Assembly: GCF_044324785.1 (NCBI RefSeq)
Contig: NZ_CP172127.1
DNA length: 64,000 nt
Origin: Escherichia coli
GTDB lineage: Bacteria > Pseudomonadota > Gammaproteobacteria > Enterobacterales > Enterobacteriaceae
Direction: 5' to 3' (one strand)
Positions within the stretch are counted from its first letter, which is position 1, and each line of letters opens with the position of its first letter. Below are positions 3,078 to 10,222 of this stretch, piece after piece. The translations under genes were made by a program, and so were the position numbers. The notes under the pieces were generated by a model. That model was not told the origin of the DNA. It saw only the letters and a list, made by a program, of their open reading frames with translations, and did not search any database.

Positions 3078-3788
3078 TCAGAGCAGATTTTGCTCCTTCT
3101 TTGCACTCAACCCGCCGTAATCATTTATCGTCCGCCAGGAGACATGACACGGTGCTATTGCCTGACACCAGCTTGTCTGACGCTGGCTTTTAGGTGGCAC
3201 AACTCCCGCATTACTTAACGCTTTACCATTTACGCTCACCTGAATCAGGTTAATGTAGTAAGGCGTTGGGTTAGTGAGTTGTACACCCTGCGAATTCCGT
3301 GTCCAGCGTAATTGTTGATAAGCTTCCAGCGGGTCGCCCGGCAAACCTTCGGGTCGCCAGAACAGTTTAAATACCGAGCGCATCGCCACTTTTACGCTCT
3401 GATTTTCAACTTTGCCGGATGGTACGCTGGCAATGCTTAACTCAAATAGCGTTTCGCGATCCACAGGCAAAATGCCGCTTTCCGTTCTCAGCAAGCGCAA
3501 CGTGCCTGTAGTACCGGGCTTCAGGAGAACAAGTGGTGGAGCGACCAGTAGTGGTGCTGACCCTGTCGATGCTTCGCCCCCGGCCCAACGCGTTGGGCGA
3601 TTGATTTTACTGTTAATAAGCCAGGATTCCTGACTGGTATTAGTCAGTGAAATAGATATCGATTCTCTGTCTGCCGGGAAGATAAATCGCGTTCCGCCAA
3701 CCACCACTCCTGCCTGCAATTTCCCCGCCACCAGCAGCGATAAAACGGCAAAAATCGCGAGCGTCAATCTGTTCCACGTATTAGTCAT
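3078..3788 (-). CDS. ycbF: periplasmic fimbrial chaperone (PapD-like), YcbF
   Basis: Signal peptide followed by chaperone-like sequence; last gene of the ycb fimbrial cluster; start trimmed to MTNTWNR at 3788. Confidence 0.85.
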   Translation of the reverse strand: MTNTWNRLTLAIFAVLSLLVAGKLQAGVVVGGTRFIFPADRESISISLTNTSQESWLINSKINRPTRWAGGEASTGSAPLLVAPPLVLLKPGTTGTLRLLRTESGILPVDRETLFELSIASVPSGKVENQSVKVAMRSVFKLFWRPEGLPGDPLEAYQQLRWTRNSQGVQLTNPTPYYINLIQVSVNGKALSNAGVVPPKSQRQTSWCQAIAPCHVSWRTINDYGGLSAKKEQNLL

Positions 3789-4296
3789 AATGAAGTACAA
3801 ATGTCGCGCTGGCATTCACTTTACCCGACTGCACATCGCTATTAACAGGTCGCAATTGCGCATAAAAAGTTAATGGCACCTTACCGCTATGTAGGCTGTA
3901 GTCTTTACTCGCCTGGTTAAGCGGAATCAATATTTTCGCATCATCCAGAATCGCAATTGCCAGCCCGCTGGCTGCATCCGTACCACTTTCAATGGACAGC
4001 ATTTCGCTCTGCACTCCGTCGGGGGCTCCTGAAAAGGTGACGTCAACCGTGCTGACATCTGTTCCGCAATCCTGCAAATTAATAATGAAAGATTTCTCCG
4101 GGCCAAAATTCCCATTAGAAAAACGTGTCAGCGAGACATCGCCTAACTGCACATTGATTTGCTTGCTATCCTGTGCCAGCACGCATGTATTACGGCGAAA
4201 CGATCCGCTAATGTTAACCGTGCCATCATGGGCAAATAGCTCACAGCTTCCCATTAATCCCAGTAAGCACAGCATCCAGATTATCCGTTTCAACAT
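3781..4296 (-). CDS. ycbV: fimbrial-like subunit YcbV
   Basis: About 171 aa with signal peptide and C-terminal fimbrial-subunit-like ending (ATFVLHYD); start trimmed to MLKRIIWM at 4296. Confidence 0.8.
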   Translation of the reverse strand: MLKRIIWMLCLLGLMGSCELFAHDGTVNISGSFRRNTCVLAQDSKQINVQLGDVSLTRFSNGNFGPEKSFIINLQDCGTDVSTVDVTFSGAPDGVQSEMLSIESGTDAASGLAIAILDDAKILIPLNQASKDYSLHSGKVPLTFYAQLRPVNSDVQSGKVNASATFVLHYD

Positions 4297-4303
4297 CACT
4301 CCT

Positions 4304-4846
4304 TCACTGGTAAACCAGATCAAAATAGAGAACCGCCGTCGCATTACCGCCCGTTGCGCCCGCCTTTGTGGACTTATAGCGGAGTTGATATTTGAGTGTG
4401 TTATCCCCCGCTTTTAAGGGCGTAAGAGGCTGGACCTGATTGAGCGGGATTTCTTGCTGACTTTGCGCATCAAGAATTTGCACGGCAATCCCCGTTGCCA
4501 TACCACCGCCTCCGCCTGTGTCAGTTAGTTTGAGCAGTGTCGGCACAAGGGTGTCAGCCTCACCGCTAAAAAGGACGTCCGCGCCAGTAATACCAGCGGC
4601 ACAACCGGTGATATCGATATTCAAATCAGCAGCAGTGCTTACGGTATTCGCGGCCTGAAAATCACTGATATTAAAATCACCAATATGAATATTTTGTAAT
4701 GCACTTTTGGTGGCGACATCACAGCCCTGATCGACCACATTCCCATAAATATGCATACTAACTTGTTCAGGCCCAGCCATCCCGACATGGATGTTAAGAT
4801 TGCTAAAGAACAAGATAACGCACTGAAATATCGTTTTTTTCTTCAT
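4304..4846 (-). CDS. ycbU: fimbrial-like subunit YcbU
   Basis: 180-aa secreted protein with pilin-like C-terminus (AVLYFDLVYQ). Confidence 0.8.
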   Translation of the reverse strand: MKKKTIFQCVILFFSNLNIHVGMAGPEQVSMHIYGNVVDQGCDVATKSALQNIHIGDFNISDFQAANTVSTAADLNIDITGCAAGITGADVLFSGEADTLVPTLLKLTDTGGGGGMATGIAVQILDAQSQQEIPLNQVQPLTPLKAGDNTLKYQLRYKSTKAGATGGNATAVLYFDLVYQ

Positions 4847-4857
4847 ACGTTCACGCG

Positions 4858-5928
4858 TTAATCAAAATTTATTCTCACCGTTGCCGTGGCTTCAAAGCGC
4901 CCGGTTTCTGGTGGTACACCTGTCGTGCTGACTGGATAGACATTCATTCGCGCGATACTGTCTGCATCATCAGGAATAGAGAGCGGTAGAATTCCACCAG
5001 CCGGGGAAATTATGTTGTTCTGGCTATCGGTCACCACAATGCCCACGCCAGGACGTGACGTCTTTATCGCCTGGGGATAGCTGGGGTCTGAGGTTGCCGT
5101 CAGACTCAGGTTGACGTTAACTAACCCAGCGTTTCCAGTGTTACACCTGACAGGGATTGCGAGTTCAGCCGTTCTGGCCCCAAGAGGCTTATGCCCTACA
5201 ACACGAAAGTTAGCCGCAAATACATCGCCCAGATCGACTTCGATTGTCTCTCCGGCATTGACGGAACATGAGCCAAGTGAATTGATCGTGCCAGACAGGT
5301 AATACACTAAAACCGATGTACCTGTAGTCGTGCAGGAATCACCTGCGGGTATGTTGTAGCATTCAAATAATCGCGCCAGCGCCATAGGAGGAATGACGAC
5401 CGAACCAACGAACGGCTGCAATATTTTCAGGGAAAAGCTACCGCTATTACCGCTAGCCCCCTGGCCACCTAAACGTTGACCGCCGGGATCGCAAATATGC
5501 CATCGTGTATCTGCCCCTGTGCCCACGTTTTCGAAAGGAACCGCAGTAGGAGAACTGCCTTTAACCTGCAATAAAACTTTGGCGGCAAGATAGTCATTAA
5601 TTTTGTACCAGTTGTCGCCTAAATAGACTAACGGTGAATCCGCGGCGAATGCCCATCGACCATTTCTGACATTGTCTTTATCGCAATCACAGGAAACATA
5701 ATAATCATTCGATTCGTTCCACTGATAAAATTTGTCTTTAACTACCCCTGCAGTATTTTCTTCTTCCTCCAGGGTTTTAACGCCAAAATTGACGCCAATA
5801 TAGGGATTCCCCTGAGTGGTATGACACTGCCCGCTATAAGCAGCGGTTTGAGCGCACCATAGCATTAAGACGGCGGCAAAAAATAGTCGTAGTAATGACA
5901 CGCATTTTTCTCCAAAGATTATCTGCAT
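4858..5928 (-). CDS. elfG: fimbrial tip adhesin-like protein ElfG (YcbT)
   Basis: 356-aa secreted protein directly downstream of the usher gene; matches recalled ElfG length. Confidence 0.8.
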
Positions 5929-8519: not shown

Positions 8520-8543
8520 CTCGCTCTCTTAACTGAAGACGGC

Positions 8544-9245
8544 TTACGATTTACAGTTGAGTTGCGGCGTTTCCGCCCCGTAGTCATTGATGGTTCGGTA
8601 CGTTACGCTACTGTTTTGAGCACCCTTTGGCAGAGGGAATTGGTATTTATCAAAGGGGGAAATCATTTGATTTTTAACTACTTTTCCACCTATTTTCAGG
8701 TCTGTCAGGGTAATGAAATAAGGTGTTGGGTTACTGACCGTAACCATGTCAGCTGACGAAGTGCAACGCAGTTTCGCCGGAGCCTCGGCTAAGGGATACG
8801 CTAAACCTTTTGGTCGCCAGAAAAGTTTGATGACGCTTTGTGTGGCAATCTTCAGGGTATTGCCTTCTTCCCGCTTCGTTGTTGAAGGGACTGCCCGTAC
8901 GCTGGTGAAGAAAAGAGTTTCTCTGTCTTTCGCCAACGGCGCACCAATATACATAATGCGTAACAGATTCTCGTTTGCCGGATTCAGCACAAATAGCGGT
9001 GGTGTAATAATAAAGTCCGCTGACTTTTTATTATCTGGGGTCATCACCCATGACTGAATAAGATAAGGAACATCCGGACTGGTGTTACGTACACCCAGTG
9101 AAATTTGCTCTTCACCTTCCGAATAAACAAGACGTGTTGCTGCAAGTCCGACCCCACCTTTACCTGCCGCCCATGTGAACGAACAGCTGAGTAATATTGC
9201 CGTTAAACTTACGGTCACAATTCCCTTTGTTATGCAAGTTTTCAT
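8544..9245 (-). CDS. elfD: periplasmic fimbrial chaperone ElfD (YcbR)
   Basis: 233-aa PapD-family chaperone sequence with signal peptide. Confidence 0.9.
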   Translation of the reverse strand: MKTCITKGIVTVSLTAILLSCSFTWAAGKGGVGLAATRLVYSEGEEQISLGVRNTSPDVPYLIQSWVMTPDNKKSADFIITPPLFVLNPANENLLRIMYIGAPLAKDRETLFFTSVRAVPSTTKREEGNTLKIATQSVIKLFWRPKGLAYPLAEAPAKLRCTSSADMVTVSNPTPYFITLTDLKIGGKVVKNQMISPFDKYQFPLPKGAQNSSVTYRTINDYGAETPQLNCKS

Positions 9246-9327
9246 AAATAGTCACTCTTAAAAAATATGGATATCCCCTCCAGAACACTGGAGGGGTACT
9301 AATTAATAAAACAATTAATGAGTTCTA

Positions 9328-9867
9328 TTAATAATAGTTAATATGGAAATTTGTTACCGCATTCACATTACCAGAAGTCGCTTTCCCCGTAGCGATATAA
9401 TCAACTTTAAAAGTCAACGTCTGATCTCCATCTTGCAACAAAATGTTCCCGGTTTCTGTGTCTGGCGTGATGGCCGTTGTACCATCATTCATATACATTT
9501 GCAGGGCCACGTTTGTAGCAGCATCAGATGAGGCCTGGTTAGCAAACGCTGTAATCTGAGTAGTATCCGCAGTGCCATTAAAGGTGAACGTTGCATTTTT
9601 TGTTACGGTAGTATCACAATCTTTTAATTCAATTGGCACATCAGTTTGCACGCCAGAAACCTGACCATTGGTTTGCAACTTCGTGGCACTAACATCTGGC
9701 AAAGTCACCACGGAATCTTTCGTCGCAGCGACCAGAGTACAAGCTGGAGCAATAACTTTACCATTAAATGTTACTGAGCCATCCGTGATAGCATTATCAT
9801 CAGCAGCCATAACGCTGGACGTTGCACATACCACAGTTATAAACGCCGTCAATACACTTTTTTTCAT
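9328..9867 (-). CDS. elfA: major fimbrial subunit ElfA (YcbQ)
   Basis: About 179 aa with signal peptide (MKKSVLTAFITVVCATSSVMA) and pilin C-terminus (TNFHINYY); start trimmed to 9867. Confidence 0.85.
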   Translation of the reverse strand: MKKSVLTAFITVVCATSSVMAADDNAITDGSVTFNGKVIAPACTLVAATKDSVVTLPDVSATKLQTNGQVSGVQTDVPIELKDCDTTVTKNATFTFNGTADTTQITAFANQASSDAATNVALQMYMNDGTTAITPDTETGNILLQDGDQTLTFKVDYIATGKATSGNVNAVTNFHINYY

Positions 9868-10222
9868 CGTTATCATCCTGATCTCTTCGTAAATATGATA
9901 ATGCCTTTAAATGACATTAGACTTAATAATAACAATAATTGTCCGCCATTTAAATCAAGCATACTAAATCCAATAAGTGACAAATCTTTAATTTATAGAT
10001 TTCATGAATATTTAAATATTAACTGAACGAGTAATTCATTGATTCAACATCTAATGACTATCCAATAAATAAATATGCGTGATATATAAAGCCCTTTCTT
10101 TAGTTTATTTTCAGAAAAAGATACACAAAATTTATATTTGGCATTTTCTTGTCTCTCCGACAGACTGACCGAATTGTTATCAATGTTAACAAAACAAGAA
10201 CAATTGGTTATAAGGAGAGAGT

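Follow-up and report, generated by a model that had tools for sequence, protein, structure and literature searches.

The elf/ycb operon and its described relatives

The elf/ycb operon of Escherichia coli (elfADCG-ycbUVF, also named ycbQRSTUVF), which codes for chaperone-usher fimbriae termed the 'E. coli laminin-binding fimbriae' (ELF or Ycb), has been described in K-12, where its laboratory expression is poor and three data sets place it in the H-NS regulon (PMC5797941). The label 'cryptic' is a description of laboratory K-12. When placed under a foreign promoter, the K-12 operon makes fimbriae (Korea 2010, as cited in PMC5797941), and so expressed, the orthologous operons from K-12 and O157 Sakai yield rigid fimbriae, with increased adhesion to Madin-Darby canine kidney (MDCK) cells and early biofilm formation (PMC5797941, PMC7098969), the foreign promoter in PMC7098969 being Ptet. 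The binding of ELF to laminin and epithelial cells is credited in PMC7098969 to Samadder 2009. Among related systems, the Bcf fimbriae have been called orthologues of Ycb in a review (PMC7886704), and according to Wurpel et al. (PMC3559732), Ycb occurs in phylogroups A, B1, D and E, with the related Auf occurring in B2. Here, we analyze this operon in a 64,000-nt stretch of E. coli DNA (contig NZ_CP172127.1 of assembly GCF_044324785.1; hereinafter the window), where it occupies positions 3078-9876 on the minus strand and is flanked by pyrD and ssuE, at the same site as in E. coli K-12.

We hold with high confidence that this region is an intact allele of elfADCG-ycbUVF, a chaperone-usher cluster of the gamma-1 type, whose products are likely to be assembled and regulated in the manner proposed below. 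The anatomy of this already described operon is as published, with nothing departing from it. The strain retains this known accessory adhesin operon complete and probably in working order, a finding of little significance beyond annotation; if derepressed, the operon may aid adhesion in the gut or to surfaces and early biofilm formation.

Gene content, intactness and selection

The locus comprises seven consecutive minus-strand open reading frames (ORFs) at 9328-9876, 8544-9245, 5919-8519, 4858-5928, 4304-4846, 3781-4344 and 3078-3815. A megablast search with positions 2900-10400 against 5,426 complete E. coli genomes matched annotated elfA, elfD, elfC, elfG, ycbU, ycbV and ycbF, and this, along with the annotated references, identifies the seven ORFs as these genes in that order, matching the elf annotation in K-12 (b0938-b0944) and in strains E300010 and N3 gene for gene. 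An earlier reading of the window made without database searches (hereinafter the sequence-only reading) had proposed a seven-gene elfADCG-ycbUVF locus; its gene names, order and assigned roles are borne out by Pfam, NCBIfam, synteny and alignments. The ORFs of elfA, ycbV and ycbF run 5' of the starts annotated in the references. The likely start of elfA is 9867 and not 9876, that of ycbV is likely 4296 and not 4344, and that of ycbF is likely 3788, as in K-12; for the latter, the RefSeq annotation from the Prokaryotic Genome Annotation Pipeline (PGAP) has 3815, but in the longer ORF the alignment to the NCBIfam YcbF model begins at residue 10. These revisions leave the overall conclusion unchanged.

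In global alignments to K-12 MG1655, E300010 and N3, none of the seven genes differs in length from its orthologue, all of them having zero gaps and a single terminal stop, and a search of the alignments to these three references for internal stops or indels found none. Thus, the claim of the sequence-only reading that the operon is intact withstood the frameshift check by alignment to orthologues, with no frameshift seen in any gene. The ratio of nonsynonymous to synonymous divergence (dN/dS, Nei-Gojobori) ranges from 0.03 to 0.37 for every gene in every comparison with these references, while dS reaches 0.26 (elfC against K-12 and elfG against N3). Accordingly, all seven genes are under purifying selection. 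Moreover, each of the seven proteins has exact matches in public E. coli assemblies. For ElfC, ElfG, YcbU and YcbV, these are on about 280-315 contigs each, and the accession numbers of the four proteins are consecutive; the combination of consecutive accessions and similar contig counts indicates that the allele set recurs as a block.

The operon copy in the window is probably functional, and the earlier description of the fimbriae as potentially expressible fits the literature on the K-12 and O157 Sakai operons, both of which make fimbriae under a foreign promoter. An alternative explanation is that the ORFs are open while the operon is decaying, i.e., that it goes unexpressed in nature and that missense changes have inactivated at least one of its proteins. 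The poor laboratory expression of the K-12 operon, the lack of the entire operon in roughly 27% of the complete genomes and the existence of a ycbQ pseudogene in Shigella flexneri (PMC6854044) would all be in line with decay. However, the low dN/dS seen in all genes despite the above synonymous divergence, the equal lengths over four divergent alleles, the retention of the chaperone anchor residues (see below), the recurrence of the exact alleles in hundreds of assemblies and the assembly of fimbriae by orthologous operons when expressed speak against it, and we regard decay as very unlikely.

Encoded proteins of the operon

The domain composition of the products places them squarely in a fimbrial system, with Pfam E-values that put the fimbrial domain matches far beyond chance. 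The Fimbrial domain (PF00419) is present in four ORFs, namely ElfA, ElfG, YcbU and YcbV (E = 1e-14 to 1e-28), PapD_N and PapD_C score above their cutoffs in ElfD and YcbF, and ElfC combines PapC_N (1.5e-49), Usher (2.7e-222) and PapC_C (1.4e-18) domains. The gene for the major fimbrial subunit, elfA (ycbQ; 9328-9867, minus strand, as are all seven), codes for a protein of 179 residues with a PF00419 match at E = 5e-17 and BcfA as its best NCBIfam match; it is 100% identical to ElfA of E300010 and differs by one residue from that of K-12. The outer-membrane usher ElfC (ycbS; 866 residues; 5919-8519) reaches 1742.9 bits against the NCBIfam PRK15193 usher model, the cutoff of which is 995. With a 10-nt overlap, elfC is followed by elfG (ycbT; 4858-5928), which codes for a two-domain tip adhesin of 356 residues: the pilin domain corresponds to residues 211-356 in Pfam, an extra N-terminal domain lies ahead of it, and LpfD, a two-domain tip adhesin of solved structure (5AFO), aligns over residues 33-356 (E = 3e-26). 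The two remaining subunit genes code for minor or adaptor subunits, namely ycbU (180 residues; 4304-4846; PF00419 at 1e-14), with BcfE and then FimF as its best NCBIfam matches, and ycbV (171 residues; 3781-4296 within an ORF extending to 4344; PF00419 at 8e-20), with BcfF and FimF. Upon inspecting the translations by eye, we found FimA-like N-terminal donor-strand stretches of the form G-x-V-x-F/I-x-G..C in ElfA, YcbU and YcbV, and a terminal Y/F-x motif in these three as well as in ElfG.

The operon codes for two periplasmic chaperones, which are only 36% identical to each other. The first, ElfD (ycbR; 233 residues; 8544-9245; PapD_N 5e-36, PapD_C 3e-15), resembles SfaE/FimC structures (E = 2e-51). 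The second, YcbF (236 residues; 3078-3788, or 245 residues for the ORF extending to 3815), likewise unites PapD_N and PapD_C, resembles the FimC structure (E = 3e-34) and scores 524.8 bits against its own NCBIfam equivalog model PRK11385 (cutoff 357), with PRK15192 as the next match. In chaperones of this type, Arg8 and Lys112 anchor the C-terminal carboxylate of the subunit. Alignments to SfaE/FimC reveal that the equivalents of both residues (FimC/PapD numbering) are kept in ElfD and YcbF, the motifs being ATR(L)VY and IKLFWRP in the former and GTRFIF and FKLFWRP in the latter. As judged at the sequence level, then, the operon displays every hallmark of a gamma-1 chaperone-usher system.

The AT-rich spacer between ssuE and elfA

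The non-coding DNA between elfA and ssuE (10223-10798, plus strand, with ssuA, ssuD and ssuC on the same side) is a divergent regulatory spacer of 355 bp (9868-10222). Its G+C content of 27.6%, as compared to a window mean of 50.7% (standard deviation 4.9), ranks it among the lowest 0.06% of 355-bp windows, and it holds the global G+C minimum of the 64 kb. The roughly 350 bp of strongly AT-rich upstream DNA noted by the sequence-only reading is thus real and is the minimum of the window. However, this DNA is the divergent spacer common to elf and ssuEADCB and not the upstream region of elf alone. The spacer is identical to that of K-12 at 353 of 355 positions (99.4%). The two differences (10142 and 10195) fall in the part facing ssuE and leave the predicted elfA promoter and the proposed SlyA site (see below) untouched.

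The K-12 counterpart is one of 78 'promoter islands' and was H-NS-bound in all three chromatin immunoprecipitation (ChIP) studies considered there (PMC3661553). SlyA counteracts the repression by H-NS and binds the whole 355-bp fragment in gel shifts, and its overproduction in K-12 raises the elf operon 2.7-fold and ssuEADCB 3.6-fold (PMC5797941). The SlyA site TCAGGATGATAA is a sequence-based proposal from the same work (PMC5797941); in the window it has an exact match at 9870-9881 (minus strand), overlapping the Shine-Dalgarno region of elfA. Genomic systematic evolution of ligands by exponential enrichment (SELEX) with the RpoD holoenzyme yielded TTTAAA-17-TATTAT towards elfA and ATGACA-17-AATAAT towards ssuE (PMC3946193). 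Our consensus scan recovers both: a predicted sigma-70 elfA promoter TTTAAA-17-TATTAT with a TG extension at 9926-9954 (minus strand), which would start transcription near 9919, and a predicted ssuE-direction promoter ATGACA-17-AATAAT at 9911-9939 (plus strand), the same pair as in the RpoD SELEX. These two matches agree with the published predictions and add no independent evidence to them. Given the near-identity of the spacer to that of K-12 and the binding of H-NS to the latter, silencing of the elf spacer by H-NS, which the sequence-only reading had suggested from the AT-richness, appears well supported by transfer from K-12.

A presence/absence segment with internal spacer DNA

Alignment to the elf-less strain 131 places breakpoints at 3067/3068 and 10154/10155, which delimit a presence/absence segment of 7,087 bp (3068-10154) comprising the whole operon and 287 bp of the AT-rich spacer. 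The distance from pyrD to ssuE in strain 131 is 236 bp, and 69 unrelated bp replace the segment. Of 5,412 complete E. coli genomes, approximately 1,446 (about 27%) have nothing of the spacer beyond the 68 bases next to ssuE. The absence of elf from this fraction of genomes agrees with the phylogroup distribution of Wurpel et al. Since the breakpoint lies inside the spacer, 287 bp of AT-rich DNA (25.4% G+C) belong to the operon-specific segment. These exact boundaries may interest those who study fimbrial regulation, as may the observation that the operon takes most of the H-NS target DNA along with it. As an aside, ssuC is annotated as frameshifted in strain 131 (L003 11750-12527).

These boundaries bear on a second alternative, namely that the AT-rich spacer serves in essence to drive ssuEADCB, i.e., the sulfonate-sulfur regulon, and has little part in the control of elf, which would lie elsewhere. 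It draws on the divergent spacer being common to both operons, on the 3.6-fold response of ssuEADCB to SlyA overproduction and on the ssuE-direction promoter that the SELEX table lists within the spacer. Against it, elf-less genomes keep just the 68 bp on the ssuE side while the other 287 bp track the operon, and with ssuE starting at 10223, no further non-coding DNA is available upstream of elfA. We give this alternative very little weight. Phase-variable expression, which is widespread among gamma- and pi-clade fimbriae, by either an invertible promoter (fimS type) or a Dam/Lrp methylation switch (pap type), is highly improbable for this locus, as the best inverted-repeat pair (25 nt, 76% complementarity) lies inside the spacer with no convincing flanking repeats, there is no recombinase gene between pyrD and ssuE and the spacer holds a single GATC, on which grounds both switch models were rejected.

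A conserved hairpin after elfA and the 3' end of the operon

The 82-nt spacer between elfA and elfD folds with -29.9 kcal/mol (z = -5.2) and contains a hairpin at 9260-9296 (minus strand), with a 9-bp G+C-rich stem (9275-9296) followed by a U-run (9260-9265). Four alleles that otherwise diverge have 81 of the 82 bases in common. The pap and fim operons offer precedence for an attenuating or stabilizing element after the major-subunit gene. By analogy, the elf hairpin probably attenuates transcription or stabilizes the elfA mRNA, thereby setting the ratio of the major subunit to the assembly proteins. Such a conserved element after the major-subunit gene may be of interest in the study of fimbrial regulation. 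At the other end of the operon, a PyrD leader (Rfam RF02373, 97.9 bits; 2962-3035, minus strand) begins 42 nt after the ycbF stop and is the sole match in an Rfam scan of 1-13000. It precedes pyrD (1957-2967, minus strand), the flank of the operon on the side of zapC and ycbX.

Allelic mosaicism of the locus

The elf locus is a recombination mosaic. Among the 5,426 complete genomes searched by megablast, the best match to the elf region is 98.0% identical. Strain N3, which is the nearest for the rest of the window (99.6-99.7% identity), falls to 97.3% over 1-14000. In a sliding comparison, tracts switch from one reference to another: for example, 4900-5900 in elfG is 91-93% identical to N3 and 96.6-98.4% identical to E300010. 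Fifteen of the 19 differences of ElfG from its N3 counterpart are within residues 1-204, the receptor-binding half of the protein.

Two tracts outside the operon, 1400-2150 (the 5' part of zapC, the zapC-pyrD spacer and the 3' end of pyrD) and 10650-11400 (ssuA), are 84-88% identical to K-12 and E300010, and 92-98% identical to N3. The low identity of these tracts, which is far below the within-species norm, suggests imports or a regional recombination hotspot. The spacer itself has at least two haplotypes, with that of E300010 (L001:8469-8823) differing at 24 of 355 positions (93.2% identity) even though its ElfA is identical to that of the window. Across the complete genomes, spacer identity is 90-95% in 116 and 80-90% in 157 genomes.

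Taken jointly, dS values of up to 0.26, the mosaic alleles, the purifying selection and the invariant hairpin hint at natural use and selection of the operon. Thus, one might speculate that the 'cryptic' operon is used and selected in nature, with old alleles being reshuffled especially in the receptor-binding half of ElfG and YcbF, far from redundant, serving a distinct subset of subunits. We view this composite scenario as doubtful. As the end of pyrD with zapC, and ssuA, are equally mosaic, the pattern is regional and not elf-specific, and it points to a regional recombination effect rather than to selection on elf itself.

Proposed assembly and regulation

Based on these observations and on what is known of the family, we propose the following scheme. 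Subunits would be exported by Sec, captured in the periplasm by ElfD and YcbF via donor-strand complementation, and delivered to the usher ElfC, where polymerization would occur by donor-strand exchange. In the resulting fiber, ElfA is predicted to form the rod and ElfG the tip, with YcbU and YcbV acting as adaptors, an order of subunits that is modeled on the family. The two chaperones may divide the work between them. By transfer from K-12, transcription would start in the AT-rich spacer, divergently from ssuEADCB. H-NS would coat this spacer, leaving the operon nearly silent in laboratory culture, and SlyA acting on the same spacer might partly relieve the repression. The hairpin after elfA would probably then raise the ratio of the major subunit to the assembly proteins.

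Several points weigh against this picture of an intact operon under H-NS and SlyA control. Compared with the references, each protein has 1-23 missense differences, which may affect function. The promoter and H-NS site prediction that the sequence-only reading had called for was run, and its motif scans contribute nothing independent in favor of either kind of site: scanning 2900-10400 for sigma-70 sites gives 8, as compared to 12.3 in shuffled sequences, so that the call of the elfA promoter rests on one consensus match. Likewise, the H-NS motif TCGATAAATT (with up to two mismatches) is not enriched, with 75 occurrences in the window against 62 +/- 8 expected, and only two weak matches to it lie inside the spacer. 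We also looked for an intrinsic terminator 3' of ycbF and found none (fold z = 0.0); with no terminator between the ycbF stop and the PyrD leader 42 nt away, elf transcription could in principle read into pyrD. Finally, the silencing, the SlyA control and the assembly proposed for this strain are carried over from K-12 or the family.

Other features of the window

The sequence-only reading had set the intact fimbrial operon against an exopolysaccharide locus disrupted by the insertion sequence IS2 at the other end of the window, and this too is correct. A 1,331-bp IS2 (61167-62497), with TnpA (62041-62451) and TnpB (61178-62083) both above their NCBIfam cutoffs, splits a bcsB-like gene into fragments at 60563-60982 and from 62448 to beyond 63932; relative to strain N3, the insertion shows a 5-bp target duplication. 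Within the surrounding region (57343-64000) lies a bcsC homologue (57343-60450). This second, accessory bcs-like cluster adjoins pflA and is rare, with 8 of 5,426 complete genomes covering at least 80% of 39001-64000.

Strain N3 has an IS4 between ycaL and aroA which the window lacks, the empty site being at about 47394-47406 (13 bases common to both flanking alignments). After the ssuE/elfA spacer, the most AT-rich 355-bp stretches of the window are 52695-53049 (29.6% G+C), the ycaO-focA spacer, which is also a K-12 'promoter island' (PMC3661553), and 20270-20624 (30.7% G+C), the asnS-ompF upstream region.

Comparison with known systems

The type 1 (fimAICDFGH) and lpf fimbriae use the same gamma-1 chaperone-usher machinery as elf: ElfD is FimC/SfaE-like, YcbU and YcbV are FimF-like and ElfG is homologous to LpfD. 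In contrast to these systems, elf has a second chaperone and lacks a fimB/fimE recombinase or an invertible switch. The receptor specificity also differs, laminin and heparin being reported for Ycb (literature summarized in PMC7098969).

The bcfABCDEFG(H) cluster of Salmonella enterica has seven collinear genes including two chaperones, as in elf. In the order of the operon, BcfA, BcfB, the PRK15193 usher, BcfD, BcfE and BcfF are the overall top NCBIfam matches, with YcbF being the exception. Among the Bcf models (with PRK15192 presumably being BcfG, going by the CDD numbering), each Elf/Ycb protein scores best against its same-position counterpart. However, while the usher passes, the six non-usher proteins are well under the Bcf equivalog cutoffs, with scores of 118 against a cutoff of 247 for ElfA, 207 against 365 for ElfD, 124 against 517 for ElfG, 125 against 240 for YcbU and 116 against 238 for YcbV. 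The two clusters are homologous and collinear, but with only the usher reaching its cutoff, elf falls outside the strict Bcf equivalog family. Further, the bcf cluster of Salmonella is at a different chromosomal site and can include bcfH, whereas ycbF is followed by the PyrD leader, 42 nt on, and not by any gene resembling bcfH.

The elfADCG-ycbUVF operon of K-12 MG1655 (b0938-b0944; Ycb/ELF) is at the same site and has the same genes, order and lengths, along with the 99.4% identical spacer. Six of the genes are approximately 94-99% identical to it in nucleotide sequence, elfC being at 94.2% (dS 0.26), while the lower figure of 92.3% for ycbF is an artifact of aligning the 738-nt ORF to the 711-nt gene of K-12 (27 gap positions). 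The proteins differ from those of K-12 by 1-23 residues each, and the allele combination of the window is a mosaic that none of the complete genomes searched matches above 98.0%. Lastly, the Auf fimbriae of B2 E. coli are a closely related chaperone-usher type (PMC3559732), and according to Wurpel et al. Auf and Ycb are mutually exclusive (PMC3559732). Strain 131 is empty at the ssuE-pyrD site, whereas the window has Ycb there.

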